A stretch of 64,000 nt of DNA, from positions 34,784,001 through 34,848,000 of the forward strand of contig NC_086108.1 in NCBI RefSeq assembly GCF_963921235.1, in the 5' to 3' direction. Shown piece by piece: positions 5,030 to 59,139 of this stretch. The translations under genes were made by a program, and so were the position numbers. This DNA comes from Mobula hypostoma. Its lineage: Eukaryota. Under the pieces are notes generated by a model. The model was not told the DNA's origin and did not search any database. It was given only the letters and a program-made list of their open reading frames with translations. Every line of letters begins with the position of its first letter. The first letter of the stretch is position 1.

Positions 5030-6250
5030 CTTGCTGTTCGTAATGTGCCCAGAGTACCATAATGAAGCCAACATCCCTGTCACCTATAAGAATAGCATTC
5101 CCTTTTCATAGTTGCTTCATCATCACCATATCTGTTCCCTGGATGAGGTTTTCCTTTCCGGAAAATCAGAGATGTCTTCCTTCAAAAAATATGATTTCCC
5201 TTCCTTCATAATTAACACTGTTCTCACCCACATCTCCTTCATTTCCTGAACATTCACCATCACCCCATCTTCCCGCCACCTTAACAGGGATAGAGTTCCT
5301 CTTGACCTCACCTACCACTGCATTCAGCACATCATTCTCCACAACTTTCGCCATCTGCAACGGAATCCTACCACCAAATACATTCTTACCTCACCCCCCC
5401 CACAACTCTCCACTTTCCGCAGGGATTGCTCTCTCTATGATTCCCTTATCCATTCATCCTTTCTTGCACTTATCCTTCCACCTGCCCTTTCATCTCCTCC
5501 TTTTACCTCCATTCCGGATCCCAAACAGTCCTTCTAAGTGAGGCAGCACTTCACCTGCAGATCTTTTGGGGTTGTCTGCTATATCCGGTGCTCCCAATAC
5601 AGCCTTCCCCACACTGGTGAGATCCAGTGTAGGCTGGAGGGCGGCTTTGTCGAACACCTTCACTCCAACTGCAACAAGCAGGATTTCACAGTGACCAGCA
5701 ATTTTGATTCCAAGCTGCATTCCCTTCCTGACATATCGGTCTACGGTCTCCTCTACTGCCACAATGAGGCCACTCTCAGACTGGAGTGGAAAACACCTCA
5801 TATTCTCACTCGGTAGCCTCCAACATGATGGCATGAACATCAATTTCTCTTAACTCCAAATAATTTTTTCCCCTTCCCCTTCCCTCCTCTTTCATTCCCC
5901 ACTCAAGATCTCCTCTTACCTCTTCCCTTCACCTCATCTGCCTATCACCTCCCCCGGTGCCCCTTCCCCTTCCCCTTCTCCCATGGTCCACTCTTCTCTC
6001 CTATCAGATTCCCTCTTCAGCCCTTTTCCTTTTCAACCTCTCAGCTTGTCACTTGCCCCCTACCCCACCCAGCTGGCTTCATCTATCACCTACCAGCTTG
6101 TGCTCCTTCCCCTACCCCACCTTCTTTATCTGGCTTCTGCCCCCTTCCTTTCCAGTCTTGATGAAAGGTCTCAGAATGAAACGTCAGCTATCTAATCCTT
6201 TCCATGGACGTTATCTGACCTACTGAGTTCCTCCAGCATTTTGTATGTGT
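5030..6250 (+). mobile_element. Degenerate Penelope-like element, 3' part (GIY-YIG region + terminal repeat)
   Basis: RQHFTCRSFGVVCYIRC...GEIQCRL...FVEH resembles a decayed GIY-YIG endonuclease; pyrimidine-rich tail with a mutated hammerhead core near 6153-6190. Confidence 0.8.
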
Positions 6251-7740
6251 AAATGAAAGTGATGGAAATACCCAGGTAACATTTATCACCCTGAGAGTCC
6301 CTTGCCGCATCCAGAGCATGTCCAAACTGCTGAAAACTTAGGCATTTTCCGTTCTTGTTTTTGATTCAAAGCATCTGCAGTATTTTCCTCTTCTATCTCT
6401 ATAAAGGTGCAGGTTCATCTTCCAATGGACAATCATCAAAATGATGCCAGCTTCATAACAACAGCATCTACATACGAATATAGAGTATACCAAGCTCAAA
6501 GCAATTACCCTATGGCTTTCCTGCTGGAAAATGGAATGCTCTGTGTTGAATATCCACTGGAATGTTAAGATGTTTCCTGGGAATATACAACTTTTTTAAA
6601 AAAATTATAATATTTTTGTGGTTATGAAATTCCTGGAGTGATTTAAAGGAAATCCAATTTGACTGTGTGATTTGGCCCAGCTTATGACTTGTGCTTTGTT
6701 CCAGCACTGTTGCTGTGGCAACAGTATTTTTCAAGCCACGAACAAGGTCAATCTCCATTGAGAGAGCCCTTCATGGTATTACAGATGAATCCACATTTTC
6801 TGGATTCTAAATAACATCAGCACCTTTAACGTGCCTTAACTCTATACTCAGAAGAGTGTGGAACGATCCAAGCTTTGTTTTGGGGCATTTGAAAATAGAG
6901 GATTAGATAGTAGAATGTGTAGAGATTATACCCAAAAGTGGCCACAAGATTCATAGCGGTGAGAAGAAGGTAGTGGAGTTTGTGTTGAATGTCACTGACC
7001 TGGCAGTGCAGCCCTGAACCTTGTCTTCAAATAGCCGGTGTATATCTCCTATACCTCCAGCAATTCTTGTATTCACTTCTGATTTCCAGAAGACACTGCA
7101 TTATTTCCAGATTTACATCTGGCACGAGATTAATATGGTGGGCATTATTTCTAAACAGGATGGAGGAATCGAGGACTAGAGATCAATGGGTATATAGGGG
7201 AAGTGAAGTATGACATGTGTGAATCGTCTATTACACAGTTGGATTGCCTTGCCTGCAGATGTGGTGAAGGCTGGTTCCATGGTGACCATCCGTATGGAAC
7301 TCAATAAATACATGGTGGGAGAAATTTTCAATGGTTCCTATGTGGAACTAATAAGTTGCTCTGGTAGGGAGCCGGTATGGACACGATGGGCTGAATGTCC
7401 TCTTTTGCTGTAATCATTCTATGATTCTAAAGTGTACCAAGCAAAACCTAGTTCACCAAATGGATGGTTTTTAAAAAATGCAAGAAGGAATGGAGAGAAA
7501 GAAGAAATGCTTTCTGAAAATGATCAAATAGTCACGTTGTGATTACAAGAGGGAATTGGATTTGAGCCTGAACTATATCGGAAATCATAACACCTTAAAA
7601 CATACAAGCAGAATTAGGCTGTTCAGTCTTTGGCGCCTGCTCCGCCATTCGATCATAGCTGACCCATTTCCTTCTCAACCCCATTCTCCAGCCTTCTCCC
7701 CAATAAGAACATAATACATAGGAGCAAAATTAAATCCCAA

Positions 7741-7920
7741 ACACGAGGAAATCTGCAGGTGCTGGAAATTCAAGCAACACACACAAAAAATGCTGGTGAA
7801 CACAGCAGGCCAGGCAGCATCTATGGGAAGAGGTGCAGTCGAGGTTTCAGGCCGAGACCCTTTGTCAGGACTAACTGAAAGAAGAGATAGTAAGAGTAGT
7901 TCACCTGCTGCGTTCACCAG
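7741..7920 (-). mobile_element. Short Penelope terminal-repeat insertion with a small inverted tail
   Basis: Same terminal sequence as the 28511 element; 13 bp TSD AATTAAATCCCAA at 7728-7740 and 7921-7933. Confidence 0.85.
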
Positions 7921-10776: not shown

Positions 10777-10814
10777 CAGTTGATGTTTCGGGCTGAGACC
10801 TTTCATCAGAACTG
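10777..10814 (-). ncRNA. Hammerhead ribozyme motif, partly decayed
   Basis: Minus strand CAGTT-CTGATGA-AAGGTCTCAGCCC-GAAAC-ATC-AACTG: core and 5 bp helix I intact, ACGT palindrome lost. Confidence 0.6.
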
Positions 10815-13800
10815 GAAAGGTAGGGGACAGAGGCCGGAGAGCCGATACTGAATTGGGGACAGCTTTATGAACACCTTCGCTCTGTTCACTGTAAAAGGCC
10901 AGGATCTCCTAGTGGCCATCCATTTCAATTTGACTTGGCATTCCCATTCTGACATGTCTGTCCATGGTCTCCTGTACTGCATGATGAGCCCAAACTCAGG
11001 CTGGAGGAGCGATACCTCATATTCTGTCTGTGTAGTCTCCCATCAATGGACGGCATGAACTTTGATTTGTCAAACTTCTGGTGATTTCTCCATTTTTCCA
11101 TTCCCCATTCTGGTTACCCTCGCACTTCCTCTGTCTTCCTCTTCTGCCTATTAACTCTCTCTAGTTCACCTGCTCCCTCCCTGTTTTCCATGGTCCACCA
11201 TCCTCAGCCCGAAACATCAACTGTATTCTTTTCCATAGATGCTGCTTGGCCTACTGAGTTCCTCCAACATTTTGTGTGCATTGCTTGGATTTCCTGCATC
11301 TGCAGATTTTCTCTTGTTTGTGATTAAATAACTCAGAAAGTTAAAGGAATAACAAGGTAATGTCATGCGGAAGAAAATTTCGGAATTGTTAAGCGTGAGT
11401 ACTTCTTCCCCAATGGTAGCAATAAGAAGAAGTAGCTGGAATCTTTTTTACGGGAGTTGAAATGTCCAGTGCAAGAGGGCATGCATTGAGGGTGGAAAAG
11501 GGTAAGTTCAAAGAAGATAATTTGACACAGGCAATGGTGAGTGTCTGGAATGAATGGGTTGCTAGGTGCGGGGATGGAAACAGATACAGAGGCATTTAAG
11601 AGGCTCTAGGACAGGCACGTGACTGTGTAGAGAATGGAGAGATATGGACTATGTGCATACAGAAGGGGCTGTGTCATTATTTAATTAGATTGGCACAACA
11701 TCATTAACCAAGGGGCCTGTTCCCGTGCTGTACTGTTCTACGTTTTGCCAGCAGAGGTTAACTGTAGTTCCAGAGGTCCTGGTACATGTCTCGATGACGC
11801 ACTGCAATCAATAGTACAAAAACCCTTACAGTGCTTGGTCTTCCACAGCCATTAGGAATGCTGAAAATGCCTTCATTATTCAATTGAATGATGTGTTTCT
11901 TGTACCTAGTTTTTTGTACCCAGAAATCAGAAGTTTTCAAAGAAAATGGGAGAAGCCTTTTATTTTGGTGCATCTGTGATTTTCTCCAGTATTGGTCATG
12001 CTTGCTTTCAATGATCTGTGGAAACCTAAGCTGGACCATTGCTCAGTGTATGATGGTCTGCACCTCAAGCCTTCCACACGGATTCTTATTGAAGGTGCAA
12101 TTTACAGAACATTGAGAGACGGCTCAGCATAAATTCAAGCCTGAGCTCCAGTCTAATCCACTTGTGTACATTATAGTAAGACAAACATGAGTGTGATCTC
12201 CTCTGGAGATCAGATTCAGATACAGTACAGAGTCTCATTTTCCACAGAACAATTAAAATACTCACTGCACTTATCAATGTGTTGATGAGTTCAAAAGGAA
12301 ATAACAGAATGAAAGGATTTGGAATTGGCTGAAATTCGGCAGAATGTCATTTCTTACCTATAAAGTATGCATAATGGCTGTTCGACAAAACACTTTTAGT
12401 TAAGCAATTAGGCTTCAATCACTTTTAAACAATGCAACAACTTTCCCCTTTATAAGTTCAGTATCTTCTACCACCCAGACTAGTATTTAAGCCATTTCTT
12501 TTAAATAATTATTCAATCCCATCTTGTCCATGGCATCTTTTTCTACCTCTTTGAAACATGAATAAACTGCGTTTACTTGCTGTTATTAATGTGACCGGTT
12601 GCCTTAATAGATGAGTAAATTATAGAGAGAGGTTTCTGCAGCATTCATTAAAAGGAACTGAATTAATGCCGGCTAAGGCAAATCACATCAACTTTGGCCT
12701 TAATGATCGCAAAGCCAATTCAGCCGGTCAGCGGGAAACAGAATTGCTTTCTTTGTTGAGGGCAATTGCTAATCCAGTTTGGATATCAGGATATAACCTG
12801 TGTATGATACAATATATAATTCTGAAATGGTTGAGACTGGGATGAAAAAGATCGAAGTGGATGATTTTAGTCTTGATAGGCTGAAACATGACCAGGTCAG
12901 GATCCAAACAAGTACATCCTATAATTTCCAGAGACACCAGACAAAATATGATTCTTGGAAAATTGTGCTTGGGAATTTCTCATGAGCTGATTCTGCTCAT
13001 GGAGCATGTGATAGAATCTTGCTCACACCTTGCTCTGGCAGTGGTACACAGACATCTTCAAGGATGTGGAAGACCTTCAAAGAATATAAAAGCCCAAAGC
13101 ATTCAAAACCTTTGGCCCCAACAATGGAGGGAGTAGAAGTTACTGATGGGGTGCTTTGTTGTAGTTGGTCTCAAGCTTGGAGCTGTACTCCTGACATGTC
13201 ACATATAGATGGTGGGAGGGCTCTCTAAAATGGGGAGTGAGACACACGGCCCAGGGACCTATCTCTAACCTGATGTAACTGGCCTATTTAAGCATCTAGT
13301 CAATGGTGAGCCATGATGGGGATGGTGAGTGATTCAGTGATGATACTATAATGAAAGTTAGATGGCAAATGCTGACACATGTCTGGTAGGAATATAATAT
13401 GCAGCTTACAAGCCCATGCCTGAATGTTACTGTATTTGGATGGGGACTGTTTCATTATCTGAGAAGATGTGTTTCCCTCCATTACCACAATAATTGCACT
13501 TCCATCAGTTATTGACTACGAAGTGCTTTGGAACATTCTGAGCTTGTGAAAGGAAACTTATTATAACTGCAAGGTCCTTTTTTCCATCAGCATGAACCAT
13601 GCCTGAGGAAATCTGTATTAGTTAAGGAATTGAAAAATTGAAAGGCTTGATGATAGAATTCATCTACATTGTACGGAGTGAAGCATATGAACCTAAGAGT
13701 CTGATGATTAAATCACTTCCTTATTTTTCACTCTCCTCCTCCACACTATATACATCATATTCTTTTTCTACCGTCAGCATTATAAACAAGTCATGCAATT

Positions 13801-14672: not shown

Positions 14673-17600
14673 ATAAGACAACCTGCCCAATCTGTCTTTG
14701 TAAGACAACCTGCCTGTTCCAGCAATAGTCTAGTAAACCTTCCATGAAATATTTCCAATCCATTAATATTATTACTTAAATAAGACTGTACTATACACAA
14801 TACTCCAGGTGTAGTTTCTCAGTGTCTTTCATAGAAAAATAACCTTTCTCCATTTATGTTCCATTCCCTTAATAGTAATAGACAATGCTATTTTTTGCTT
14901 TCCTAATTGTACATGGCCTTTTGTGGCCATGCATCACATAAGCTCTTCAGTGTCTCACCATTTACACAATATGAATAGTTGACTTTTTTTCCCTGCCAAA
15001 ATGGACAATTTTCCTCACACTACTCCCCATTTGCCAGACCTCTGCCCCCTCAGTCACTTTGCATTCATACGTCCTCTTCACAACTTACTTCCTACCTGTC
15101 ATTGTGTCAACAGCAGCTTCATCAACCAACCATACCTTTCATGCCTTCATCCAAGTTACTGATATTCATAAAAGATTGAGGCTTGTCACCAATCCCAGAG
15201 GCACACCACTAGTTATATCTTACCAACTAGAGGAAAACTCTTCTAATGCTATCCAATAAGTTGGTCAAACCTGACTTCTCTTTCACAAACTTGTCTGACT
15301 TTTGCTAAATACCTTTATGTGTCCTACTATAACATAATTAATAATGGGTTCTAAGACGAAGGGTCTTGGCCCAAGACATAGGCTGTTTATTCCTCTCCAT
15401 AGATACTGCCTGACCAGCTGAGCTCCTCCAACATTTTGTGTGTGTTGCTCTGGAATACCAGCATCTGCAGAATCTCTTGTGTTTAAGGTTGTAAGATTTT
15501 CAATTGTTCAATTCAATGATTCAATGATTCAATTTAATATCAATGAATGTATACAGTATACAACCTGAAATTCTTACTCTTCGCAGAAAAAAACCCAAAG
15601 AATAAATGGCTGAAACGTCAGAGCCCCAAAGCTCCCCTCCTCCCTCCTCGCACATGAATATATAAAAAAAATCAAATCAAAACACTACATCTTTCTGTTT
15701 TCATATCTACAGTATTTGGAAAATAGAAAATGTAATTTCTTAATTCAGTTGTATGCGGTGTTCCCCAGATCCAGGGAATTTTAGAATCTGATTTACAGGC
15801 TGCTCAGTAATTGTTTAAATTGGCCAGAAAGTGTTTTAACTATACCCTTCTGAAAAAATAGCCTTTTATCCAAATTCCAGCTGAAGTCTGCAATCTATAG
15901 TTGGAGCAGAACTTTATATATTTACCGAAATATTTATTTTCTCCACCTCTTTCACACGCACATTTCGATTTATCGTTAGTCTTGTCATAGTGTGCTCACA
16001 AACCTTCCACAAGCAGCACCTGTTATGACTAGCCACACTGCAGTTCCATTGTTCTGAAATGGACACAGATTTGGCATTATTTGGTACAACTTTGGCTCCT
16101 CTAGATCAGTGTACAAATGACTGTAGATTTGCCAGATTGTATGCAGCAAAACCAGACAATAATAAAGGCTAAAATGCTGTTTGCTGCCTTAACTGCTTGT
16201 TCGACCTCCCTACTAACTTTTTGTGATTAAAACACTTGACTACTTCAATTCCTCTGAACTTCATTCATTTTCTTTCTCTCTCCATTTTGATGAGAATCTA
16301 TGTTTTGATTCCCCTTTTTGAAATGCATGACTTGACTTCCCCCATGCAAAACTGTATTTGCCCAGTCCCTCAATCAATCTGTATCCCATTGCAGAATCAC
16401 AAAGTCTTCCTCACAACTTGTACCATCAGTGTGGAGTAACTCCCAGGCCAGAACCTCAAAGAACTAAGGAAAATAAGAAAATGCAGATGCAAGAAATCTG
16501 AAAAAAAAAAGAAAAATACCACAAAGTAAAAAATAATGCAGCATTTGTGGTTTTAAAAAAAGTAAATGTTTCTATTTTGAGCCCCTTCATCAGATGACTA
16601 GTACTTATTAGTACAAATACTACCAGTACTATTAGTACGGCACGGACTAGAAGGGCTGAGATGGCCTGTTTCCGTGCTGTAATTGTTATATGGTTATATG
16701 TTATAAGGTTACTAAAGGTAGAAGCATTGGCCATAAAATCAGTCTATGTTCAGTTGGCTGGAGTTGGAATTGGCTTGGTAACTCCTGGGCCAAGAAAGGT
16801 AAAAGATCAGTTGTGGGTAGGGTTAATTGTGTGCCTTGTCAGCAACCAGTAATCTCTGTTGGAAAGTGCCAAGTGGACCAAGCATGATCGGGCTTGGTTG
16901 TGGCATCTCTCAGAAACCGATTGGTGTCTATACTTAGATAATAGGTATGTGGAGAGCTCTCAGCAAGCCAACATCCATGGAGTGCATGAAAACAAGTCAG
17001 AGCCTTCAGAGGGGAAGAGGAGAAATAATATTGTTACATGTACAGGAACTCAGCTATGAATTAAATGGCACAAATGCAGGATTCCCTGCCTAAACCAGTA
17101 GTCTATATTCCTACTGAAATGTTTTAAAAAAGCCTTCCATCCAGGCTTTTACCCAATGCCTCCTAATATATATTTTTTGTGTCAGCACCCGTTCTTGATC
17201 TGATTACCTGTCTGTAAAAATATTTCGGGAAGGTTTTTGAAGCTTAGTGCATGATTTACATGAAAATTCCCTTCATTGGTGCGTAACCGTGCAGAGCTAG
17301 ATAATGATAAGTTTAATAGCAGCTTATTCCATAATCATTGTTGTTCAAATGTTTTAAGGTAATTGAGAGTTTAAACATTTAGTGAATTTCTTAATATTTT
17401 GCTGCTTTGTTTTATGAAGGAAGACTTCTCATTGTCCTTTAACATATAAAAGTCAATTATTTGGACAGGTTACATTTCTCTGCAATCACTGTGTAAAGAG
17501 AATAAATTAATTGGCCTCTGCAGTATAATAGAGCAATAACCTGCTGGTCATATGAGATTATGAATATGGATATTTATTTCATATCTCTGTACCAGCTTCA

Positions 17601-21450: not shown

Positions 21451-21970
21451 GGATCTGAGGGCACGGCCTCAGACTAAATTGGACATCTCTTTAAAACTGA
21501 GATGAGGAAAGATTTCTCCAGCTAGATGGTGATAAACTTGTGGAATTAATGTCCAGAAGGCTTTGTAAGTCATGAACTTGGGTGCATTTAAGACAGAGGT
21601 TGATAGATTCTTTATTAGTAAAGTGATTAAGAGTTACAGGGAGAAGAAAGAAGAATTTATTTTTTAAACTCAGCCATAATTGAATGATGGTCCAACTTCA
21701 ATGAGTCAAAAGGCTTAATCTGTGCTTCTATATCTTATGGCCTTATCAGCTAATTCAGAACCCAGAGAAAAGGAGTGGAAGCATGTCATCCTCAATGCAG
21801 GAACATCTAAAAAGTAGTGTATTTGCAGGGGACGTCGCGTGATGACATGAGATTGAGACGTGTAAATCCAGCTCTCCCGCAACAAGTCAGTAAAGTACCG
21901 TTTAAACAAAACAAAGTTAGTAAATATTTTCTGAAAACTATTTATAAACTTTGTAAGATTACTTTACGAT

Positions 21971-23105
21971 ATGCCTCCTAAACCGCAACAAAAGAAGTCT
22001 GCTGTTGCGAAGCAGCCGCGAGACGGGAAGGAAAAAGGGCCTACTGCAACGATGAAGCCTCAGACTCAGGTTGGATCTCCTTTGGTAGAACAGGGAGCAA
22101 CGGCGGTGGCAACGGTTTCTTCGAAGAAGACACCGGTAATGCGCAAGCGCAAAGAAGAGCGCATGCGCAAACCGACACAACACAAACTACAAGAACCGAC
22201 AACCACTGCAATTGAAAATGACTCAGAGTCAGAATCGGATTCCGCAGAGAACATAGATGAAGAAGAGGAGGAAGAACTGGAAGCGATTGGAAGTAAAGGA
22301 GATGATAGTGATATCATCTCCTTTACTTCCAGAAGCTATATTGCAATTAACGGCTGAATTAAGAAAAGTAAGAGAAGAACTTAGAGATACGAAGATGTGC
22401 TATGATAAAGTTATGGCAAGAAAGGACAAAATGGATAAGAAGCTTCAGAAGATGGAAAGAGCAATGGGGCATATGAATGATAGAGTGGAAAAAACAGAAA
22501 ATGATTTGCTTGTCTGGAATTCGGAAAGAAACCGACTCTTGGAGAAAGTGGACATGTTGGAAAATTTTAGTAGACGTAATAATATTAAAATTGGTGGTCT
22601 TAAAGAAGGTATGGAGGGCGATAAACCAATAGAATTTTTTCAAAGATGGATCCCGGATGTTTCGCAAATGGAAGAGGAGGTTCGATCAATTGAAATTGAG
22701 CGGGCACATAGAGCTTTAAGACCAAAACCAAAAGATGACCAATATCCACGATCGATTTTAATAAAATTCTTAAGATTTCAAGACAAGCAAAGTATTCTAC
22801 AGGCAGCTACTCGAGCTGCCAAAGATAGAAAAGGGCCATTGATAATTGGAGAGAGCAAAGTTTTTTTCTGTCCTGATATAAGTTACGAACTTTTGAAGAG
22901 AAGGAAGAAATTTAATCCAGTGAAAAAAACCCTATGGGAGCATGGTTATCAATTTACACTGCGTTATCCTGCAACTTTGAAGATTTTTTTGTCTGGTGGA
23001 GAAAAAAGATTTTTTGATGATTGTCAGAAAGCAGAGCAGTTTGTGCGAGATTCTCTGAAAACTCACCAGACACAAGAACAAACCCAGGAGAGCGAGATAG
23101 ATTGA
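21971..23105 (+). pseudogene. L1 ORF1 (coiled coil-RRM-CTD), frameshifted near 22320
   Basis: Overlapping frames 21971-22357 and 22257-23105; motifs LENFSRRNNIKI.GL.EG, IERAHR and YPATL. Confidence 0.9.
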
Positions 23106-23573
23106 AGATGAAGATTGGGTTAGAGAATGGACTTGATGGATTTTTGAAGCGGTATGAATGTATAAATATATTATTAATTATACGAGAGGGATAAGAAAGG
23201 TTAAAACTGGAGGAATATTAGTTGGGAATAGTAATACTAATTTTGTCTATATGTATATAATGTTTTTTTTTGCGGGGGAGCTGGAAGAAGCACTGATCGA
23301 TTGCTACGCTATCATGTGTGCAAGCGTGGCTTTTGCCATGACCCGCAAAATGGAGGGGGGTAGTGTTGTGTATCCTTTCGTTCACAACATTAGTGGGGGG
23401 GTATTTTGCTTTTTTCTTTTTTTGTACTTTTTCTTTCTTCTTTTTTCTTTCTGCCTGGAAGGTTGTGAGGGAGACACATAGCAACATGGTGAGGTTTAAA
23501 GAGATTCCCCAAGGAACTATGAAAGTTGAGAAGATAAATAATGTTTTAGATTGGAGTAACTTTGTGAAGTATA

Positions 23574-26500
23574 ATGACTAATTTATTGAATTTTTTGAGT
23601 TTTCATGTTAATGGGCTTAATGGACCAGTGAAAAGAAAAAGAATCTTAACACATATTAAAAAAATGAAGATAGATTTAGCTTTTTTACAGGAAACGCACC
23701 TAACGGAAACAGAACATCAGAAACTAAAGAGAGATTGGGTGGGTAGTGTTGTTGCGGCTTCATTTAATTCAAAAGCGAGGGGAGTAGCAATTTTGATCGA
23801 TAAAACGTTACCAATTAGAATACAAAATGTAATAATTGATTCTGCGGAGAGATATGTGATTATACATTGTCAACTTTTCTCTGAATTATGGACTTTTATG
23901 AACATTTATGCACCAAATGAAAATGATGCAAAATTCATACAAGAAGCTTTTCTGAATTTGGCGGATGCGCATGAAAAAATATTAATTGGAGGAGACCTTA
24001 ATTTTTGCTTAGACCCAGTCTTAGATAGATCAACCAAGGCTGTTATAAAATCGAAGGTAGTAAATTTAACTTTATCATTGATGAAGGATTTAAATCTGAT
24101 TGATATATGGAGAAGAATCAATCCTAAAGAAAGAGACTATTCGTTTTACTCCCATAGACATAAAACTTTCTCAAGGATAGCTTTGTTTCTATTATCAATG
24201 CATATTCAACACAGAGTGAAAAATATGGAATATAAAGCAAGAATATTATCAGATCATTCCTCTTTATTAATGACAATAATAATGGCTGATAAGGAAGAAG
24301 TGGCTTATAGATGGAGATTTAATTCAATATTATTAAAACGTCAAGATTTTTGTGATTTTATGAAAAAGCAGATTCAATTTTTTTTGGATACAAATTTTCA
24401 TTCAGTGGATGATAAATTTATATTATGGGATGCGATGAAAGCATATCTTAGGGGCCAGATAATAAGTTATACGTCTAAAATTAAGAAAGAATATATGGCA
24501 GAACTAGATCAATTGGAAAAAGAGATTACAAAAATAGAAAAAGAATCTCAAAGATATATGTCAGAAGAAAAACGAAAACAACTTGTCAATAAGAAGTTAC
24601 AATACAATACGCTTCAGACATATAGAACGGAAAAAGCAATTATAAGAACTAAACAAAGGTATTATGAGTTAGGTGAGAGAGCACATAAAATTCTTGCCTG
24701 GCAGTTGAAAACAGAACAAGCTTCCAAAACAATAAATGCAATTAGAACAAGGGCAAATAAAATATCTTATAAACCTCTTGAAATAAATGAAACTTTAAAA
24801 AATTTCTATTCTGAATTATATCAATCAGAATCCCAAAATGATGTTAATGAGATAGAAAAGTTTTTATCACAAGTTTCTCTTCCAAAATTGAATTTGGAAG
24901 AACAGAAGGGATCGGATATGCCTTTTACATTAAAAGAAGTTGAAGAAGCATTAGGATCACTCCAAAGTAATAAATCTCCAGGAGAAGATGGTTTTCCACC
25001 TGAATTTTATAAAAAATTTAAAGATTTATTATTTCCTCTTTTTATGGAACTAATATGTCAAGCAGAAAAAATACATAAACTTCCAGAATCTTTTTCAACA
25101 GCGATTGTAATAGTACTGCCAAAAAAAGACAGAGATCCTATGAAACCAGCATCATATAGGCCTATTTCTTTATTGAATACGGATTATAAAATAATAGCAA
25201 AAATTTTATCGAATAGATTATCTAAATATTTACCAAAATTAATACATATGGATCAAACAGGATTTATTAAAACTAGACAATTGGCAGATAATGTAACTCG
25301 GCTACTCAGTATAATTCATTTGGCACAAAAAAGGGATGAGAAGAGTATAGTAGTAGCTTTGGATGCAGAAAAAGCATTTGATAGATTAGAATGGGATTTT
25401 TTATTTAAAGTACTAGAAAAATATGGGTTAGGAACATCTTTTATAAATTGGATTAAAACTTTAAATTCTAACCCTAAAGCTAAAGTGGTGACAAACTCTC
25501 AAATTTCAACACCATTCCAGTTAAAAAGGTCAACTGGACAAGATTATCCACTATCACCTGCTTTATTTGTATTGGCGATAGAGCCATTAGCAGAACTAAT
25601 TAGAATTGATCCAGATATTATGGATTTTAGAGTTAATCAGGAGGAATATAAAATTAATCTTTTTGCCGATGATGTTTTGATCTATTTAACAAATCCACAA
25701 TATTCGTTACATAAATTATCTTCTAGATTGGATGAATATGGGAAGGTATCAGGTTACAAAATAAATTGGGATAAAAGTGAAATTTTACCACTTACTAAAG
25801 AAGACTATAGTCAATGTCGATCAGTAACCCAATTTAGATGGCCGGTAAATGGTATAAAATATTTAGGTATAAGACTTGATAATGATCTAAAGAATTTATA
25901 TAAATTTAATTATTTACCACTGTTGGAAAAAATTCAAGAAGATCTTGACAAATGGATGATATTACCAATAACATTAGTAGGTAGAGTCAATGTTGTAAAA
26001 ATGAATATATTTCCTAGATTACAGTATCTGTTTCAAACATTACCAATACAATTGCCACAGAAATTTTTTCAAGAGTTAAATAAATGTGTGAGAAAATTTC
26101 TTTGGAAAGGTAAAATGTCAAGAATATCATTGGAAAAATTGACATGTAAATTTGGGTTAGGAGGGTTACTACTTCCAAACTTTAAAAACTATTATAAAGC
26201 AAATCAACTTAGATTTATTGCATCTTTCTTCGATGACCGAAAACCAGCATGGATTAAAATAGAACTAGACGAGATAGGAGAAAATAGACCTGAAGATTTT
26301 ATATATAAATGGGAATCTAAATTGATACGGGAAAAGAAAGAATCTCCTATATTAACACATTTGATTGATCTATGGAATAAGATAAATGTTGATAATGAAA
26401 CACAGAAATCTCTATTAGCAAGGAGACCTTTGTTCTAAAACAGACTTATTCCTTTTACAATGGACAATCAACTTTTATATAATTGGTACCAAAAAGGGAT

Positions 26501-28227: not shown

Positions 28228-28369
28228 AGTCAAGCAATGAGGATTGTGCGGACTATAGGACAGGCTTTTGAAGTGTGCCACAAGCTGAGCCTCCTGCACA
28301 CCGAGCAGAATGTACGCCGAGAGGAAGACCAAGAATGTGAAGAGAGTGTAGAAGCCACCAGTGTTTCAG
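28228..28369 (+). CDS. NOS1AP: Next coding exon of NOS1AP/CAPON, end of PTB domain
   Basis: Pyrimidine tract plus cag acceptor and donor CAG|gtatgt. 142 nt, phase 0 to 1: [47 protein letters not shown]. Continues the frame of the 4021 exon. Confidence 0.95.
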
Positions 28370-28606
28370 GTATGTTTTATTTACTGTATGCTCCATTCAA
28401 GGGGTAAAATTCTGTGGTATCTGTCCAGTGTGGGAAAGGTTGGCAGTCTGCTTCCATACACAGCAGGAAGGAATTAGCAAATGTGATATATTATAAACAC
28501 ATAAAACCCAAACAACAGGAATTCTGCAGATGCTGGAAATTCAAGCAACACACATCAAAGTTGCTGGTGAACGCAGCAGGCCAAGCAGCATCTGTAGGAA
28601 GAGGTG

Positions 28607-28644
28607 CAGTCGACGTTTCAGGCCGAGACCCTTCGTCAGGACTA
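28607..28644 (-). ncRNA. Minimal type I hammerhead ribozyme motif, intact
   Basis: Minus strand TAGTC-CTGACGA-A-GGGT CTCG GCCT-GAAAC-GTC-GACTG: full core, helix II, ACGT palindrome, GUC cleavage triplet and helix I. Confidence 0.85.
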
Positions 28645-38295: not shown

Positions 38296-38474
38296 AACAA
38301 CAGGAATTCTGCAGATGCTGGAAATTCAAGCAACACACATTAAAGCTGCTGGTGAACGCAGCAGGCCAGGCAGCATCTCTAGGAAGAGTCCTGACGAAGG
38401 GTCTCGGCCTGAAACGTTGACTGCACCTCTTCCTAGAGATGCTGCCTGGCCTGCTGCGTTCACCAGCAACTTTA
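38296..38474. mobile_element. Miniature fold-back Penelope terminal insertion
   Basis: Arms ~38338-38388 and ~38427-38477; 16 bp TSD ATGTTTGTGAAGGGTA at 38280-38295 and 38475-38490. Confidence 0.92.
38387..38422 (+). ncRNA. Minimal type I hammerhead motif, intact, in the hairpin loop
   Basis: AGTC-CTGACGA-AGGGTCTCGGCCT-GAAAC-GTT-GACT; GUU fits the NUH rule; AACGTT palindrome. Confidence 0.85.
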
Positions 38475-40301
38475 ATGTTTGTGAAGGGTATTAAGCTTTA
38501 TATTTTACAAGATTCTATTTAATGCAACAGTTCACCCAGTTGGAATCAAAAGAGATTGTGTGCACAGGAGTTAAGAGTCACTGTTAAGGGCAGTGACTGT
38601 TAAATGGCTGTGTGCAATCTGTACACCTCAGCAGGTGATTAATGCTCCATTTCTTACCTTTTCAGATGCTTATCTGTCTCTTCATTTGAACAAATACCTG
38701 TCCTTTACTGAGTGTTGGGTGCCAGCCAGTGTAAATATCCTATTTGATTTGCTGTGCTGAACACTGAACCATTACTATTAAAACCAAACATCTGAATAAC
38801 ATTATAGTGATGCACTTACTCTGTTCACACAGACCATTGTCATGCTACATGGAAAGAAGAAGGCACCATTGATTTGTAGGGTTGGCTGCCATTAACGTAG
38901 AGGAGGGCCATTCATTTTGCTTGTTGGGGTAGGAGATCTGATAGGGTTGCTCTGCTCATTAGAGGAACAGAGAGGTGGAGTAGCAGAGATCAGGGTTGCT
39001 TCATCAATTGGGAAATTTGAAAAACAGACCCACAGGTGAGTAGCTGTAGTTAATGGCCCTCAAAACCCTTTAGCAAATCAGCGGGATAGAGCCAGGCATG
39101 CTTCCAGCTTCAATTTCCCAAAGTACTAATGTTTTTAAATTGCTTGGAAATGGAAGCCATGGGTTCTACAATGTCCAGAGTCATGGGCAACATTAAAAAG
39201 TGTAGGCTTCCTACAGATGTTCAGGTTTTCTCCCATATCCTTACAATGAGCTGGTTGGTAAATTAATTCTCTTCTGTAACTAGTCACAACTATAGGTGGG
39301 CAGTAGAATCTTGGGGGGTGGTGGAATTGGTTACAAGGATGAGAGGGAGATCAAGTTAATTGGCTTGCTTTGAGAGCTGACATTGACTCAGTGAGCCAAA
39401 TGGCTTCCTTCTATGTTGAAAGAAAATATACTGTATGTAGCAATAAGTAACAGGGATTGATGCAGGGGCTGATGACAGCCCTTGAGTTGTCTGCATTGCG
39501 CTTCAAAAGTTCAAAATGGTATTTTTAACTTCTTATATTTGACAGCACACTTGGGGGCTTCAGCTAGCTCCAAAGTCCTTTGTTTGTTCACAGAAGTCCC
39601 AATCAAAAGGATTGCTGCAAGGAAGGCTTAGGATTCTTGTAAAAGTACATAGAAAGCTATTGATGTCTTCTGTTGATCTCAGCTCTGGAGAACATAGGGA
39701 AAATCTGGGATGGATATCATCAGAGAGCCATTCAGCTCAGGACTCCCACAGGAGTTCATAGGTCAAGAAAAAATGTTCTCCATGCTATTATCACGCGAGG
39801 CAGCCAATTTCCATAAGACAAAGGTGCAGAAGTCGGCTATTCGGCCCATCGAGTCTGCTCTGCCGTTTTATCATGAGCTGATCCATTCTCCCTTTTAGAT
39901 GTGGTTGTCTTGTTCACTATAGGAAATCCAAGCAATCCAGAGATTTGCCATTGATTTTTGTTCCAGGTTGAGAAAGAACATCATCCATTTGGAACTCACA
40001 GCAGCAAAATTTTAGTTTCCTACATTCCACAGCCACATCAAAGATTGGCGATAATCCTTCAACCAGATACACATCCCTCATTTGCAAATACCAAAGTCCT
40101 TTCTAGCTGTCCAATAGTGACACCTGAAATAATTACCAAGTCTGCCAAGTGAGATATTTTCTAGGTTGGAAAAAGTAGATCTCCTTAATTTCTACATGGT
40201 GGATAGTCACATGCCACCAAACTTATAATTCTACCTTTGTTCTGAATGTCACTCTATCTAACAGTGATGAATCCTTTACATTGTCCTTGTATCTGCACCA
40301 G

Positions 40302-40459
40302 CTCTGCATCAGACTGGCATAGAGAAGGAGGATTCAGAAGAGACTGATATCGATGCTGTCGATCACCCTCTACATGATGGTACAGAGGCCCACTTCAGCC
40401 GGGGCGTGACTGACTTGGACGCAGTACGAAATGAACCGGATCTTCATAAGATCAAAAAG
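40302..40459 (+). CDS. NOS1AP: Following coding exon of NOS1AP/CAPON, post-PTB linker
   Basis: Acceptor atctgcaccag and donor AAG|gtaacc. 158 nt, phase 1 to 0: (A)LHQTGIEKEDSEETDIDAVDHPLHDGTEAHFSRGVTDLDAVRNEPDLHKIKK, containing the NOS1AP motifs EETDIDAV and FSRGVTDLDAV. Confidence 0.92.
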
Positions 40460-42791: not shown

Positions 42792-45700
42792 GGACCCTCT
42801 CCCTACATCTGACTCCTGGTGGCCTTGGCTACTCAGAGAGGTGGTGATTGTAATCGTGGATGTGAGTCAGATCCAGAATGTCTCTTTCCTGCACCCAGCA
42901 CCTTTCCTCCAGTTCAAATCCTTCCCAGTCCACAAGGAATTGCCAAAAACCTCAAACAGTACATCAGCCCAAAAGACTTTTCATCATGAAGACCTGTTCC
43001 CTATCGATAAACCTGGAGGGCCAGTGGGGCCAACTGGTGTGGGGCTTTGGGGCTGGTGCAGGAAGTTTTAATTTAGAGATGTGGATGGTGGAGTTGGTCT
43101 TTAGGGTCTTGGGGAGCTGCGAGTTGCAAGCCATCAGGTTTACCTTCTTTAGGATCTTAAAGGACCCAATGAACTTGGGCGTCAACCTTCAAGATTCCAC
43201 TCGGAGAGGCAAACCATGAGTGGCCAGCCAGACCTGATGCCCAGGCTGTAACACAGGTCCCAGACTTCTCCTTTAGTTTGCCTTGGTCTCCACTCTCTGG
43301 GTAGAAGCCAGAAAAATCTCTCTTGCCCTCATCCATTTGTGCTTGCAGCATTGGATGAGCTTTTCAGCCACAGGGTCCCCAACATCGGCCTCCTGTTCCG
43401 GAAAGAGAGGTGGAGGATAACCAAACTGGCACTCGAATGATGACATCCCATGTGATGACTACTGTAAAGTGTTGTGGGCGAACTCTGCCCACATCAAGTG
43501 GTCTCACCACTCACCAGGTCTTTTTGAGGTCAGGCATCTTAGGGTACGTTCTAAGTCTTGGTTGGTCTACTCTATCTGGCCATTGGATTGCGGGTGAAAC
43601 CCAGAAGAAAAGCTTGCTGTTTCCCCTATCAGTTTCCAGAAATGTGATGAGAATGTGAACCTTGATGTGAGACCATGTCCACCAGGAATCTGTGGACCCT
43701 GAAGACCTGGTCCAGGCCAATCTCAGCTGCTTCCACCACAGAAGGTAGCTTCTCCAAGGCAATGAACTTGCAGGCTTTCAAAAACCAATTGACGATCACC
43801 ATGATGACCAACTTCCCCTTGGATGGCAGGAGACCGGAGACAAATTTCAATGAGCTGTATGCCCAATGTCTTTGCAGAATGGGTAGGGGGTGGAGAAGCC
43901 CTTGAGGTTGGCTCTGTGGTTTCTTGTTCTGGGCACACAACTCATATGCCTGCGTGTATTGCTGAACTTCTCTCATCCTTCTGGGCCATCAATACCTTCT
44001 CTTGATAAACTCGAGGGTCCTGGCAATCCCTGGGTGTGTGGTCATTCTTGACGAATGTCCCCATTGCAGTACCTGGGACCGGATGGAACTTGGGACGAAC
44101 AGCTGACCTGGAGGACCGTTCTCAGGAATCTCCCCTTCTGCTTGGGTCTTGTGAACAAGAGCGTTGACTCCCCAGTGAATTTGTGCTACCACCCCGGCTT
44201 GGGGCAAAATAATGGTAGGCTGCTCCTCTGATTCCAGTTTGTCAAACTTAGACCCCTGTTGATAGGTAAGGATGAAACTAATCTGGTTAAAAAGCAAAGA
44301 CCACCTGGCCTGCCTGGAATTCAGCCTCTTGGCTTCCTGAATATAGACCAGATTCTTAGAGTAAGTCCAAATGATAAAAGGGATCTTGGCCCCCTCCAGC
44401 CAGTGATGCCATTCCTTCAAAGCTAACTTAACCACAAGAAGCTCCTGATTCCTGATGTCATAGTTCCTCTCTGCCAGGGATAGCCACCTGGAGAAGAATG
44501 TTCACAGGTGCAGTTTACTTTGTGAAGGTGATCGTTGAGACAAGGAGCATCTACTCCAATGTCTAAGGTGTCCACTTCCACGATGAAGGGAAGGTCAGGG
44601 TTAGGAGAAAGGAAGTTGGGAGCTGTAGTAAACCTCTGTTTCAGCTCTGCAAAAGCAGCGTCTGCTTCAGTAGTCCAGACAAAAGGGCCTGTGGATTTCT
44701 TAGCTAGGGCTGTCAGCAGATCCGGTAAAAGTTAGCAAACCCCATGAACCGCTGGACCTGTTTGATATTGGATGATGGTGGCCAGTCTCTGACTGGCTGG
44801 GTCTTGGTAGGGTTCATCTCAAGATTACCATTAGAGATGTCAAAACCCAGAAATGAAACAGTCATTACATGAAACTCAGACTTCTCCAACTTGACATAAA
44901 GCTCATGGTCTATTAGCCTCTTTAAAATGCCCCTGGTGCGAGCGACATGCTCCTCCATGGACTTTGAGAGGATTAGGATATCATCATAGACAAAGACATA
45001 ACCCATGGAGCGTATCCTGGAGCATGTCATTTATAAAGGCTTGGCAAATGGCTGGAGTGTTTGCAAGTGCCCTGGTACTTGTAGAGCCCTGTCAGTGTAT
45101 TGAATGCCGTCTTCCACTCATCGCCCTTCCTGATACAGACAGATTGTAGGCACGCCAGAGGTCTAATTTTGTGAATACCCTCGCCCCGCTGAAGCATCTC
45201 GAAAGCCGTACTCATAAGAGGAAGGAGCTAGCGATTGGTTGTTATGCGTTTTAATCCCCTGTAATCACAGGCTCCCATCTTTCTTTTGTACAAAGAAGAA
45301 ACTGCACCGCAGGTGAAGTGGAGGGCCAAATGAAGTCTGTGGCAAGAGCTTCCTTTATATGCTCCTCCGTGGCGCTTCACTCTGGGCCTGAGAGCGCATA
45401 TCCTGTGGAGGACAGGTACCGGGCAACAGGTCTATGGCACAGTCGTATGGTCAGTACAGTGGAGGAGTTGAGGCCTTTCCCTTGCTGAAGACCTCCTCCA
45501 AGCCCTTGTAAATGGAAGGGATTTTGACCTGTTTGGGTGGTGCTATCTCCTCTGGACCTTCCTTTGAGGACGACTCCTGAGACCTCTTTGGTGACAGGGA
45601 TGATTTGACGGGCTTCAAAATCCTCTCTCTGGGCTGCCTAAGTTCATCCATGGAAACGATGGCTAAATCAGAGTCCGACTCCCCGTCTGTATCCACAGGC

Positions 45701-49260: not shown

Positions 49261-49969
49261 TGGTACTGAGTTGGGAAAGTGGGACAGTGGTCAAGGAATG
49301 GGAATGGATCACAGATATTATTGCTCAGTACAAGCTCTGAATCTCTATGCTGAAAAATCTACTAACTTACTGAAGTAAGAAATCTTATACTGCATTTTCA
49401 CAATCTCTGAAGCGCCAAACTCACAGACACATGTAGACACGTAGTATATTTGGCCTGGGGAAAGATTACTCCAGTAGGTACGCTGATAATGTAACCCTGT
49501 TGCCTCATCTGTGATAGTTTACACTTTTGCAAACAATGGATCAAAGTTTTACATGCTGTATTAATGCAAGTACTGAGTCTGATCATCTGACTGAAATTGT
49601 ACTCTTTGGTTTAAGGAGGATCACTAGTTTGACTTACCACGGATCAGTTACCACTTGTCACAAAGCCAAGTATGCAGTCAGGTGCTAGTTTGCAAATCAT
49701 AAAAACTGCAATGCTGGAAATCTGAAATAAAAGCAAAAAATCTGGATGAAGTTCCAAATGGACAGCAAGTCTCGGGCGAAAGGTTGCAGACATAAACCAT
49801 TTGCACAACTGCTGCCTGACCAGACCTGCTGATTTTTCCAGCATTTTCTGGTTTTTGCTTGTTACAATTTGGGATTGCTCACGTCTTCAAAGACTCTCTC
49901 AATGTAATCATAAATTTTCCTCCCATACTCTCCACAGTTGTGTTGCAGGGATGTCATCTGTATAAAATG

Positions 49970-50835: not shown

Positions 50836-50854
50836 TCAGTGATAGCAGTTGATG

Positions 50855-54769: not shown

Positions 54770-56522
54770 TTCCATCTAGCTATCATCCTTATCACCTGTC
54801 CAACCTCACCTCTATCTACCTATCATCCTTATCACCTGTCCAACCTCACCTCCATCTACCTATCATCCTTATCACCTGTCCAACCTCACCTCCATCTACC
54901 TGTCATCCTTATCACCTGTCCAACCTCACCTCCATCTACCTATCATCCTTATCACCTGTCTGACACCACACCTCCATCTACCTATCATCCTTATCACCTG
55001 TCCAACCTCACCTCTATCTACCTATAATCCTTATCACCTGTCCAACCTCACCTCCATCTACCTATCATTCTTATCACCTGTCCAACCTCACCTCCATCTA
55101 CCTATCATCCTTATCACCTGTCCAACCTCACCTCCATCTACCTGTCATCCTTATCACCTGTCCAACCTCACCTCCATCTACCTATCATCCTTATCACCTG
55201 TCTGACACCACACCTCCATCTACCTATCATCCTTATCACCTGTCCAACCTCACCTCCATCTACCTATCATCCTTATCACCTGTCCAACCTCACCTCCATC
55301 TACCTATCATCCTTAGAAAGTGTCCAACCTCACCTCCATCTACCTATCATCCTTATCACCTGTCCAACCTCACCTCCATCTACCTATCATCCTTATCACC
55401 TGTCCAACCTCACCTCCATCTACCTATCACCCTCAGCACCTGTCCAACCTCACCTCCATCTACCTATCATCCTTATCACCTGTCTGACACCACACCTCCA
55501 TCTACCTATCATCCTTATCACCTGTCTGACACCACACCTCCATCTACCTATCATCCTTATCATCTGCCCAACCCTCTTCCATCTACCTGTCATCCTTAGA
55601 AAGTGTCCAACCCTACCTTCATCTACCCATCATCCTTAGCACCTGTCCACACCTACTCCTCCATCTACCTATCATCCTTAGCACCTGTCTAAACCCCTCC
55701 TCCATCTACCTATCATCCTTTGCACCTGCCTGACCACCCCCTCCATCTACCTATCATCCTTAGCACCTGCCCAAACCCCTCCTCCATCTACCTATCATCC
55801 TTATCACCTGCCCAAACCCCTCCTCCATCTACCTATCATCCTTATCACCTGCCTGACCACCCCACTCCATCTACCTATCATCCTTAGCACCTGCCCAAAC
55901 CCCCTTCTCCATCTACCTATCATCCTTAGCACCTGCCCAAACCCCCTTCAACATCTACCTATCATCCTTATCATCTGCCCAAACCCCCTTCTCCATCTGC
56001 CTATCATCCTTAGCACCTGCCCAAACCCCCTTCTCCATCTACCTATCATCCTTATCATCTGCCCAAACCCCCTCTCCATCTACCTATCATCCTTAGCACC
56101 TGCCCAAACCCCCTTCTCCATCTACCTATCACCCTCAGCACCTGCCCAAACCCCCTTCTCCATCTCCCTATCATCCTTAGCACCTGCCCAAACCCCCTTC
56201 TCCATCTACCCATCATCCTTAGCACCTGCCCAAACCCCCCTCTCCATCTACCCATCATCCTTAGCACCTGCCCAAACCCCCTTCTCCATCTACCCATCAT
56301 CCTTAGCACCTGCCGAAACCCCCTTCTCCATCTACCCATCATCCTTAGCACCTGCCCAAACCCCCTTCTCCATCTACCTATCATCCTTATCATCTGCCCA
56401 AACCCCCTTCTCCATCTACCTATCATCCTTATCACCTGCCCAAACCCCCTTCTCCATCTACCTATCATCCTTAGCACCTGCCCAAACCCCCTTCTCCATC
56501 TACCTATCATACTTAGCACCTG
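54770..56522. repeat. Minisatellite, about 43 units of 40-42 bp
   Basis: Left consensus CCATCTACCTATCATCCTTATCACCTGTCCAACCTCACCT (40 bp); right consensus CCATCTACCTATCATCCTTAGCACCTGCCCAAACCCCCTTCT (42 bp). Confidence 0.98.
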
Positions 56523-57032
56523 CCAGCTCTTGTTACACTCCCTTCCCCCCCATCACTTTATGTGCGGCCACCTCTACGCTTATCTTTCAGTCCAGATGAA
56601 AGGTTTTGAACCAAAATTTTGACTGAATATTCCCTTTCACAGATACTGCCTGACCTGTTGAGTTCCTTCCTTGAGAGCTTTATCTTTGTAACTGCTGATC
56701 CCTAAGTGCAATGTTTGAAATAAAAAAACAAATAAGAGAGTGCTAGAAATACTCTCCAGGCTACGGAACATCTGTTAGCGAGAGAAAATGAGAGCTGATG
56801 TTTCAGGTTCATCGTCTTTGCTCAGACTGGGAACAATTCAAAAGTCGAACATGGTCTTAAGTTGCAGAGAAGGGGCAAGATGGAAGGAACAAAGAGAAGG
56901 CCTTATGAGATCAAGTCAGATTGATTGACTTCCTTGGTGGTGGAAAAAGAAGAAAGAGGGAGACACAAGTGTCTTAGTTTCAAGTGGTTTCATCTGAAGG
57001 AGATGTAAGTTAAGATGAATGCAAATAGAGGA

Positions 57033-57410
57033 GTCATCATTATCATTATGTGCTGTTTCATATGACGTGGGCAATCGTGATCTCATGACCATGATTGAAC
57101 TGGGCAAATTTTTCTACAGAAGTGGTTTGCCATTGCCTTCTTCTGGGCAGTGTCTTTACAGGACTGGTGACCAGAGCCATTATCAATACTCTTCCAGGAT
57201 TTTCCACCTGGCGTCAATGGTCACATAAGCAGGACTTGTGATACGCACCAGCTGCTCATGCGACCATCCACCACCTGCTCCCATAGCTTCACGTGCCCTG
57301 ATCAGGGAACTAAGCAAGTGCTACACCTTGCCCAAGGGTGACCTGCAGACTAGCGGAGGGAAGGAGCACCTTACACCTCCTTTGATAGAGGTGTATCTCC
57401 ACCCCACCAC
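57033..57410 (-). mobile_element. Short non-autonomous RTE-related retroposon
   Basis: Minus strand GAAGAAGGCAATGGCAAACCACT resembles the Bov-A/BovB terminal motif; short (ATGATA)n tail; no ORF. Confidence 0.65.
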
Positions 57411-59139
57411 CCATATCTCCACCCTACTACCCCACCAAGTAGAGGAGTAAAGAGAAAACAAAATCAGATATGATGCACTATTTACTGGAAATCTGGAAAA
57501 AGAATTCTGGGGACTCTCAGCAAATCAGGCAGCAAATGCCAAGAGGGAAAAACAGAAAGTTAATGTTTCAGCTGATAGCCCTTCATCAGAACTGGATAGT
57601 TCTGACAAATCAACATGGGTGTTTATCTGTTGGATTCAGCATCGTCTTTAAGTGCTAGAGTCTATACTTCGCCAAATTAGAAGTCAGTGCTTGATTTTTC
57701 TAATACCTTGTGAAAATTAAAATACATACTGTGAAACAAATAAACATAAAATGAACAGCTGATAACATTTCAACACAGTCCACAGGTTCCTTGTGGAAAC
57801 AGCAAATGGCTTGAAAATGAGATCTTGGAGTCATCAAGTACTGGGGAGTCACAATTCATTTTCCCTGGAATATTGAACTATAGGGAAGCTTTGGCTTTTA
57901 CTGATTTTATCCGAAGAAAAGCTGCCCAGAAGACATCATTAAAGACATTTGCACTGATCAAAGTCAATTGGCAACTTGGCAACCTAGTGTATTTTACTAT
58001 GCCAATATTGTATGTTTAATTTAAGATTACAACTGTTAAAATGCACATTTTGTGCTTGGACCTCAGAGAGATGGTATTGAATGTGGAACAGAATAGGTTC
58101 GTGAGTGGGTAACTCGCAATAAGGAAGAGGAAGCAAGTTAGCAAAAACACAGGGCGTGATGATGGATGGCTTTGAATGCCTGGATACTGTTTACTGTGTT
58201 ACCAATTTAGTTGCAATTTATCTTGGAATTGGAAAACTGGATTTGCATGGGCAGTTTGTTTTGATTTTGCCAAGCAGTGATAATAACAATAAAATCACAA
58301 ATTAAACCAAAAACAAAAAAAAAATGATATTGAAGCCTTGCTTGTAAGTCCATGTTATGCAGTGTTTTAATTAATATTCACACTTTAAAAATCTCCCCAT
58401 TAAATCCATACTTTCCATTAAAAACATACTTGCAAATCCCAGCCTCATTTTCTCTTCATGATGGTAATGAACTGCTCAAATATAGAGGCTTAGTATTGCA
58501 AATTCTTCTTTAAAAATCTTTCGGAATTACATTGAGATTGCTGGACTGTCTGGCCTACGTGGCAGCATGTTCATACTCGGGAAAGCAATGCCCATTTCAT
58601 TTAGTTTCTGTATAGATATGGCCACAAGGTCGTCCATTCACTGTGAAAACTATTACCAACTTCCTGATTGTGGGCAGCCGTTTCAGTGTGGTTTGATCAG
58701 TTTAAAGGCATGTATTGACTTCATTCTTGAAGGTGTGACCCGAAGTTTAACATTTATAACTGATGCCCAGCAGACACCTTACACTCTTGCTACCAATCCA
58801 CACAGCTCACTGTCTCCACCACCAGTCCTGCGTTTGCCCCATGCTTTGAAACATTGAATCGTGTTGTACATCAAGATACCGAGCGCCGCTGTCAATGAAT
58901 GTCGTTTCTCAACACTCTGTTAAATACTGCTAGCACTTTTCAATATTAAGAAGCCACAGGAATTCAAGATTGTTTTTGCCCTGTATTATTACCAGCTGGG
59001 GCTCGAAAAGTAGAAATAAACTGGAATATTTGCAGCAGAGAAGGAGGCCATTTGGTGTATCAGACAGCTGCTGACTTCCTGGAGGCACCTCTTCCAAATG
59101 TTTTTTAAAGTATCTGTCAACAGCCCTCTTAAAAGAACT

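Follow-up and report, generated by a model that had tools for sequence, protein, structure and literature searches.

Dispersed minimal hammerhead motifs in the introns of a Mobula hypostoma gene are very likely the decaying ends of a Penelope-like retrotransposon

Results

Hammerhead motifs in the introns of a PTB-domain gene

The stretch analysed here, 64 kb of Mobula hypostoma DNA (contig NC_086108.1, positions 34,784,001 to 34,848,000; hereafter the window), holds part of a plus-strand gene for a PTB-domain protein, which we take to be NOS1AP, and, within its introns, a scatter of minimal hammerhead ribozyme motifs. An earlier note, made from the sequence alone, had placed eleven such motifs in the introns of a single gene, and this location holds for all of them: host exons at 4021-4129, 28228-28369 and 40302-40459, on the plus strand, have AG/GT ends and matching phases, and the next exon lies about 24 kb beyond the window. 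The exon at 4021-4129 encodes PTB/PID domain sequence (PF00640, E=8.3e-4, over the cut-off), and the closest solved structure to its product is a PTB adaptor; structure and PDB searches with the exon at 40302-40459 gave nothing useful.

The motif was present at all eleven sites. Coordinates below cover the 36-nt motif from the start to the end of helix I, the earlier minus-strand positions being the low end of the motif. Ten of the cited copies were recovered by an ungapped scan, agreeing with the copy at 38387 at 24-38 of 38 positions, and none of 20 second-order Markov shuffles held such a match; the trace at 16593 stood outside this comparison. A profile search of the reversed window sequence gave 0 matches. 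In Rfam (E<=10) there was no hammerhead match, the 7 rows returned being hairpin or simple-repeat look-alikes, an absence that we do not count against a loopless variant. The CUGANGA...GAAA..UH core is complete in six of the eleven, at 28639(-), 29509(+), 38391(+), 10809(-), 57589(-) and 16593(-), and among the window copies only 28643(-) and 38387(+) passed a check of core plus three helices.

As had been claimed, the copies represent all stages of decay, from a fully intact motif to core-deleted and faint remnants. Three had been called intact, and their cores are, but as whole motifs they differ. The copy at 28608-28643 (-), antisense to the host gene and of the young subfamily described below, is fully intact; at 29505-29540 (+), in one arm of a 374-bp inverted repeat, the helix I pair 2.1-1.1, adjoining the cut, has been broken by CpG decay and is now C.A; and at 38387-38422 (+), within the loop of a 56-bp hairpin, the cut site is GUU. 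Two further copies keep the core with damaged helices, as the earlier note had it, and both fail the three-helix check: 10778-10813 (-), with helices II and III damaged, and 57558-57593 (-), which has an AGUU/AACU helix I and a U at the cut site and resembles the oldest subfamily. The former lies in the inverted arm of an insertion whose plus-strand arm (10837-11329) carries a remnant of a GIY-YIG endonuclease and a core-deleted copy at 11203. Motifs 10778-10813 and 11203-11224 show identical CpG-type changes in the two arms of this one insertion, and these changes were therefore already in the template, or were homogenized between the arms.

Among the four copies described as having mutated cores, three are simply decayed: 6154-6189 (+; C3U), which ends a Penelope-like element (PLE) remnant with reverse transcriptase (RT)-thumb and GIY-YIG sequence at 5076-5850; 7837-7872 (-; G8A and G16.2C), in a short young insertion at 7739-7920; and 33058-33093 (+), which ends a PLE remnant whose coding sequence lies at 31894-32804. 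The fourth, 56589-56624 (+), has a U4A core with further CpG decay and is instead probably a member of a subfamily with that core. Both fainter traces were also found, one being a decayed, 5'-truncated copy followed by the PLE tail (15349-15384, +; trace at 15349/15355) and the other a faint old copy that has lost its helices and even so keeps its core letters (16561-16597, -; profile E=0.0007). In addition to these eleven, there are four more remnants: the core-deleted copy at 11203(+), two faint PLE ends (49777-49849, +, and 56737-56827, -) and an old-subfamily remnant (63399-63480, +).

The motif lies in both ends of a Penelope-like element

These motifs are, with high probability, the hammerhead-bearing ends, or pseudo-long terminal repeats (pLTRs), of a Penelope-like retrotransposon that likely belongs to the Neptune clade; they would be decaying cargo rather than a host feature, and likely inactive, since most copies in the window are decayed. 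Upstream of 28643(-), the minus strand encodes in frame the C-terminal end of a GIY-YIG endonuclease (28941-29234; PF01541, E=0.0023, below the cut-off). Compared with the genome (3.48 Gb), this piece gave 181,191 first-look candidates, of which 150 were scored and proved 93-100% identical. Twelve genomic stretches were fetched, 11 around long-frame matches and one unrelated and empty, and they include a full-length copy, L013, whose frame is 97% identical to the piece at 28941-29234. In L013, hammerheads at 2424 and 5942 (3,518 nt apart), one in each of the direct-repeat ends, flank a 1043-codon open reading frame (ORF; 2509-5640) that matches RVT_1 (E=7.6e-5) and GIY-YIG (E=0.0043) in Pfam. 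The ORF contains DKG, YIDD, a zinc-finger linker with CX4CxxC at residue 910, CxxC at 953-956 and His at 975 and 991 (CCHH), and DKG, YIDD, linker and CCHH motifs are given for Neptune and Nematis PLEs (Craig et al. 2021, PMC8557442). By these motifs and by insertion anatomy, rather than by an RT tree, L013 likely belongs to Neptune.

Read against the L013 frame, the window holds PLE coding remnants at 5076-5850, 10836-11078, 28941-29234 and 31894-32804. These share an insertion with five of the eleven cited motifs, and the other six are joined to the PLE through a common tail. The hammerheads are minimal and dispersed as first described, but do not form a separate ribozyme family. A literature search for Penelope or Neptune elements in cartilaginous fish returned no title on this family.

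Insertion anatomy

Most insertions are 5'-truncated element ends, often arranged head to head, with target-site duplications (TSDs) of 11-16 bp in the three that were inspected. The young insertion at 28510-29600 consists of two such arms between 14-bp TSDs (28496-28509 and 29601-29614), one running from 29225 to 28510 (-) with the full 3' tail and the other from 29227 to 29600 (+) without its last ~39 nt. At 38295-38474 there is a short fold-back insertion of PLE ends with a 15-16-bp TSD (38280-38294 and 38475-38489), and the insertion at 7739-7920 has a TSD of 11-13 bp. Young pieces end at +132 to +135 or at +90 to +110 from helix I, and head-to-head arms have one end of each kind, which corresponds to the published one-sided tail of 30-40 bp (PMC8557442). 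Short pieces match the coding element's end at 90-100% identity, and their starts form a continuum from -1201 to +86; two short matches that end at +31 and +35 are copies of another subfamily whose tails continue. Starts within -28 to +9 of helix I account for 15 of 33 young pieces, a count in which starts upstream are favoured because the loci were picked for holding a motif; in an unbiased sample, 4 of 13 starts fell at +1 to +6. Judging from where these pieces begin, the element RNA may itself start at the motif.

Two observations concern what these insertions might do in RNA. The 374-bp inverted repeat noted above (28548-28921 and 29227-29600, 98% perfect) lies ~180 nt 3' of the donor of exon 28228-28369, and would give a long double-stranded RNA (dsRNA) in the pre-mRNA, a likely editing substrate. 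Furthermore, at 2400-2480 of L013 and in window copies, pyrimidine tracts ending in AG flank the motif on both sides and resemble 3' splice sites. An intron of Drosophila virilis Penelope ends at helix I (PMC4209133); here, no GT..AG spliced joint was found among 15 of 84 rows, contigs of four runs, and contigs of this kind cannot reveal RNA ends.

Ribozyme architecture and predicted folding

The motif follows the type I order. Helix I AGUC leads into the core CUGACGA and an extra A; helix II, GGGU/GCCU, closes a 4-nt loop and is followed by GAAA, an ACGU palindrome, the GUC cut and helix I GACU. The boxes CUGANGA, GAAA and UH occur in this order in the majority sequence of each of the three age strata defined below. 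The earlier note had remarked on the extra A after CUGANGA, and of 77 aligned copies at least 90% have it between positions 9 and 10.1; the same inserted base has been published for minimal hammerheads (min-HHRs) (Cervera and De la Pena 2014, PMC4209133). Helix III has no loop, and its palindromic 15.2-16.2 segment is ACGU in the young and middle majorities and CpG-decayed in old copies; the dimer-type form that had been recognized matches the published min-HHR (PMC4209133). At position 11.1, 29 of the 48 middle copies with a letter there have C; among young copies 11 of 17 have U, as do 9 of 12 old ones, and this U is either a wobble or part of an A-U register that lacks the bulge. For the intact monomer, the predicted fold is a rod with core GACG paired to CGUC at the cut, at -10.0 kcal/mol as compared with -6.0 kcal/mol for the open form; nearest-neighbour energies of this kind ignore tertiary contacts. 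As the rod pairs the core with the cut site, cleavage would be slow and need helpers.

Population size and the host gene

The very large genomic population that had been predicted is there. Exact matches to a 26-nt motif number 60,813 (30,334 forward and 30,479 reverse; control 0), and 73,736 copies have an intact core, 66,559 of them with an AGTC/GACT helix I. Sixty evenly spaced 10-kb samples gave 96 motif-covering matches, nine of which pass the core-plus-helices check; extrapolated, this is ~550,000 detectable copies per genome, or 10.2 per 64 kb. The window has 14 matches against these 10.2 expected (P=0.15), which is no excess even though its own copies seeded the profile, and enrichment in the host gene was rejected. 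The comparison of sense and antisense copies that the earlier note had proposed gave nine of each over 88 kb of host gene introns, and a strand bias was likewise rejected, on a count (n=18) that is weak.

Decay, subfamilies and the helix I change

Sampled copies fall into three strata (K=3), young (~8% from their own majority), middle (20%) and old (~30%), with the core intact in 13 of 17, 6 of 49 and 0 of 12 copies, respectively. Non-CpG divergence in the core and in the downstream flank was 2/153 vs 12/561 (young), 66/482 vs 163/1753 (middle) and 35/132 vs 82/391 (old), a comparison that excludes 18 sampled copies from a mixed cluster and is biased against the core as matches were found largely via the downstream flank. 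Inserted copies thus keep their core no better than the flank and decay neutrally. We also looked for covariation in the helices, as had been suggested, and found no excess: the score was 0.191 over 75 distinct copies vs 0.207 in shuffles, 460 of 500 shuffles being as high. This analysis used 77 of 110 aligned copies, the gapped ones, mostly old, having been dropped, and is therefore blind to change between subfamilies. For inserted copies, then, what we see is largely what the earlier note had named as telling against it, a core conserved no better than the flank, and the copies also lack a strand bias; it is instead across subfamilies that the core is constant.

The majorities of the three strata share the same core and differ in their flanks, and in the old one helix I is AGUU/AACU, position 17 is U and helix II is closed by U-A. 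Variation between them falls on the free N7, on position 17, which is tolerant, and on the helix pairs, and 11 core letters are constant. The motif is the best-kept module between subfamilies, contigs from three organisms diverging from L013 at both motif edges (2420 and 2456).

The variation of helix I between AGTC/GACT and AGTT/AACT had been thought compensatory, and this stands for one probable change, between the oldest and the younger master subfamilies, as their sequences suggest; at the level of copies most of it is CpG decay. Genome counts are 66,559 for AGTC/GACT, 6,088 for AGTC/AACT, 912 for AGTT/GACT and 177 for AGTT/AACT, an odds ratio of 2.1 that a mixture of ages can yield. We rejected AGTT/AACT as a general compensation, the mismatched AGTC/AACT standing at 6,088 vs 177. 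In the sample (C-G 39, C-A 16, U-A 13, U-G 5), the odds ratio was 6.3 (P=0.002), which traces to the old subfamily. Positions 2.1, 17 and 1.1 switch jointly, from U, U and A in the old subfamily to C, C and G in the younger ones, and keep a second 6-nt palindrome across the cut; this may be chance or may reflect further pairing. An A6C core is common to several middle-stratum copies (L084, L086, L108, L112, L055 and others).

Discussion

Relation to known hammerheads and retrotransposons

This family is a new member of a known association between hammerheads and PLEs, and the association itself is published. Min-HHRs occur in the pLTRs of metazoan PLEs, including Xena, Poseidon and Neptune of fish, and those described there share with ours the core boxes, the unpaired base at 9/10.1, a short helix I and a loopless helix III with a palindromic 15.2-16.2 (PMC4209133). 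Similarly, they have one copy per pLTR ~3 kb apart, most copies being single on truncated elements, and form opposite-strand pairs 100-700 bp apart (PMC4209133). Unlike them, however, the motif here has a helix II of only 4 bp, and its young subfamily is mostly G.U at 10.1-11.1 (PMC4209133). Copy number is also far higher here, at 60,813 exact matches; coelacanth has about 4,000 copies and Xenopus 9,000 (PMC4209133). The searchable supplement of that paper (file 2) has no shark, skate or Callorhinchus entries, although another of its files may list sharks.

As for the element itself, Neptune PLEs with an endonuclease (EN+) have the same single ORF, with RT, a CX2-5CxxC linker plus, at the C-terminus, a GIY-YIG with CCHH, and the same partial-tandem pLTRs, inverted 5'-truncated neighbour, one-end tail of 30-40 bp and HHR in the pLTR (PMC8557442). 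In contrast to the microsatellite targets mentioned in that paper, the three insertions inspected here have clear TSDs, of 11-16 bp. Non-LTR retrozymes (bioRxiv 10.64898/2026.07.22.740005) have the same type I hammerhead, derive from PLE pLTRs and have been reported in one chondrichthyan genome, but are tandem non-coding units, whereas the copies in Mobula hypostoma are dispersed or inverted ends of a coding element.

Domesticated intronic hammerheads, such as those of amniote RECK and C10orf118, are single conserved motifs that work as monomers. Unlike domesticated amniote hammerheads, ours are repeat copies on both strands, in neutral decay and without a stable helix III. Location within introns of protein-coding genes is common to both (PMC6155905, PMC3088659). 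We ruled out a domesticated intronic hammerhead on the equal conservation of core and flank, the nine sense and nine antisense copies and the missing loop III.

Does the motif still cleave?

We propose that terminally redundant element RNA, with its two hammerheads 3,518 nt apart, would use its ACGU palindromes to form a double hammerhead, which could then cut after GUC and release unit-length RNA, and that a single motif would fold to an inactive rod with its core paired to the cut site. Selection would act on master elements only, and an inserted copy would mutate neutrally, at CpG sites first. Because none of the young pieces ends at the cut, the inserted DNA would be a copy of RNA that was uncut, or had been re-joined, at the motif.

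Several results weigh against this account of the motifs as hammerhead-bearing ends of a PLE. Six of the eleven have no adjoining coding remnant, their link to the PLE being the shared tail alone; both Pfam matches of the L013 ORF fall under the curated cut-offs; and a PDB search with this ORF gave no match to telomerase RT or RT. The young subfamily mostly has G10.1.U11.1 (11 of 17) rather than the usual G-C, and the double hammerhead, predicted at -9.5 kcal/mol, is disfavoured against both the monomer rods (-10.0 each) and the best co-fold (-28.3). Of 33 young pieces, none has its end at the cut site (+32) and one has its start near it. Finally, a U4A master has probably multiplied, spreading a subfamily with an altered core: among the first 100 listed of 426 copies with a changed position 4, 36 have A, 3 G and 61 C (A vs G, P=4e-8), and a linked helix II change is found in 22 of the 36 A copies vs 3 of the 61, the A group also sharing its flanks. 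The copy at 56589 is consistent with this group and therefore probably owes its altered core to a master. A literature search for U4A with hammerhead gave unrelated papers, and the natural-variant section of PMC3088659 is without U4A, which is not proof that the change is unreported.

The U4A spread and the missing ends at the cut, both read from sequence, may mean that cleavage is weak or dispensable. It is even conceivable, if improbable, that the motif no longer needs cleavage at all and is kept in the pLTR for transcription start, RT or endonuclease recognition, or RNA pairing, its hammerhead look being ancestral. In addition to the multiplication of U4A copies and the absence of ends at the cut, the young starts near helix I (15 of 33), the predicted monomer rod and the weak dimer energy would fit such a motif, as would the low in vitro activity of min-HHRs, even as dimers, in a report that leaves room for other functions (PMC4209133), and the suggestion that HHRs may merely parasitise PLEs (PMC8557442). 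However, N7, position 17 and the helix pairs have varied around 11 constant core letters, as in a ribozyme selected in masters; some natural core variants stay active (PMC3088659); and a re-joined circle would equally remove the cut from the ends. A more specific version, in which the hammerhead is a relic that marks the start of the element RNA (insertions begin at its 5' edge and cross the cut, the rod locks the core, and U4A masters spread), we consider doubtful. Another reading, a non-autonomous retrozyme or SINE-like (short interspersed element) family built around the ribozyme and independent of the coding element, might be suggested by the six short motifs without a coding remnant and by the many short pieces that start at the motif. 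It is largely refuted and very unlikely, given that the window has no tandem array of hammerhead units and that the short pieces, 90-100% identical to the coding-element end, are continuous with long ones.

A role in the host, with sense copies cutting or regulating its pre-mRNA, is scarcely credible. The copies at 29505 and 38387 are both core-intact and sense, and both lie in intron 28370-40301; a heterodimer can be drawn with 29505 as the enzyme strand and 38387 as the substrate strand, cut at 38417, at -8.5 kcal/mol. In the predicted pre-mRNA fold, however, the antisense copy at 28608-28643 engages all but one of the 36 bases of 29505 (35 of 36 paired), and 38387 is held in the 56-bp hairpin, which takes up part of its helix I, so that cleavage of host pre-mRNA by the window copies is unlikely in these models. 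The lack of strand bias and a density equal to the genome average also speak against it.

Thus, we prefer to see the motifs as ends of a Neptune-like PLE, which makes the intronic copies debris; both the ribozyme variant and the class of retrotransposon that bears it are known, and the value of the family is one of scale. With >60,000 near-identical young copies and dated subfamilies, there is now material to ask, as the literature has, whether the hammerheads of PLEs cut in vivo and whether cleavage is required for transposition. Furthermore, if the motif were a relic at the RNA start, its young copies, in their tens of thousands, would offer a natural data set on the purpose of PLE hammerheads.

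Neighbouring repeats

A 1.75-kb array of 40-42-bp units (54771-56522) runs directly into the 3' untranslated region (UTR) of the PLE end at 56589. Its last units align with the 3' UTRs of the U4A subfamily, so this minisatellite probably grew from the element UTR. Elsewhere in the window, there is a broken LTR-retrotransposon pol remnant at 43629-45030 (-), with RNase H-like and integrase zinc-binding matches, and a long L1-like LINE (long interspersed element) at 21935-27350 (+), with ORF1 (a match resembling a dsRNA-binding domain, dsRBD), a 956-codon endonuclease-RT frame and then a 303-codon frame.

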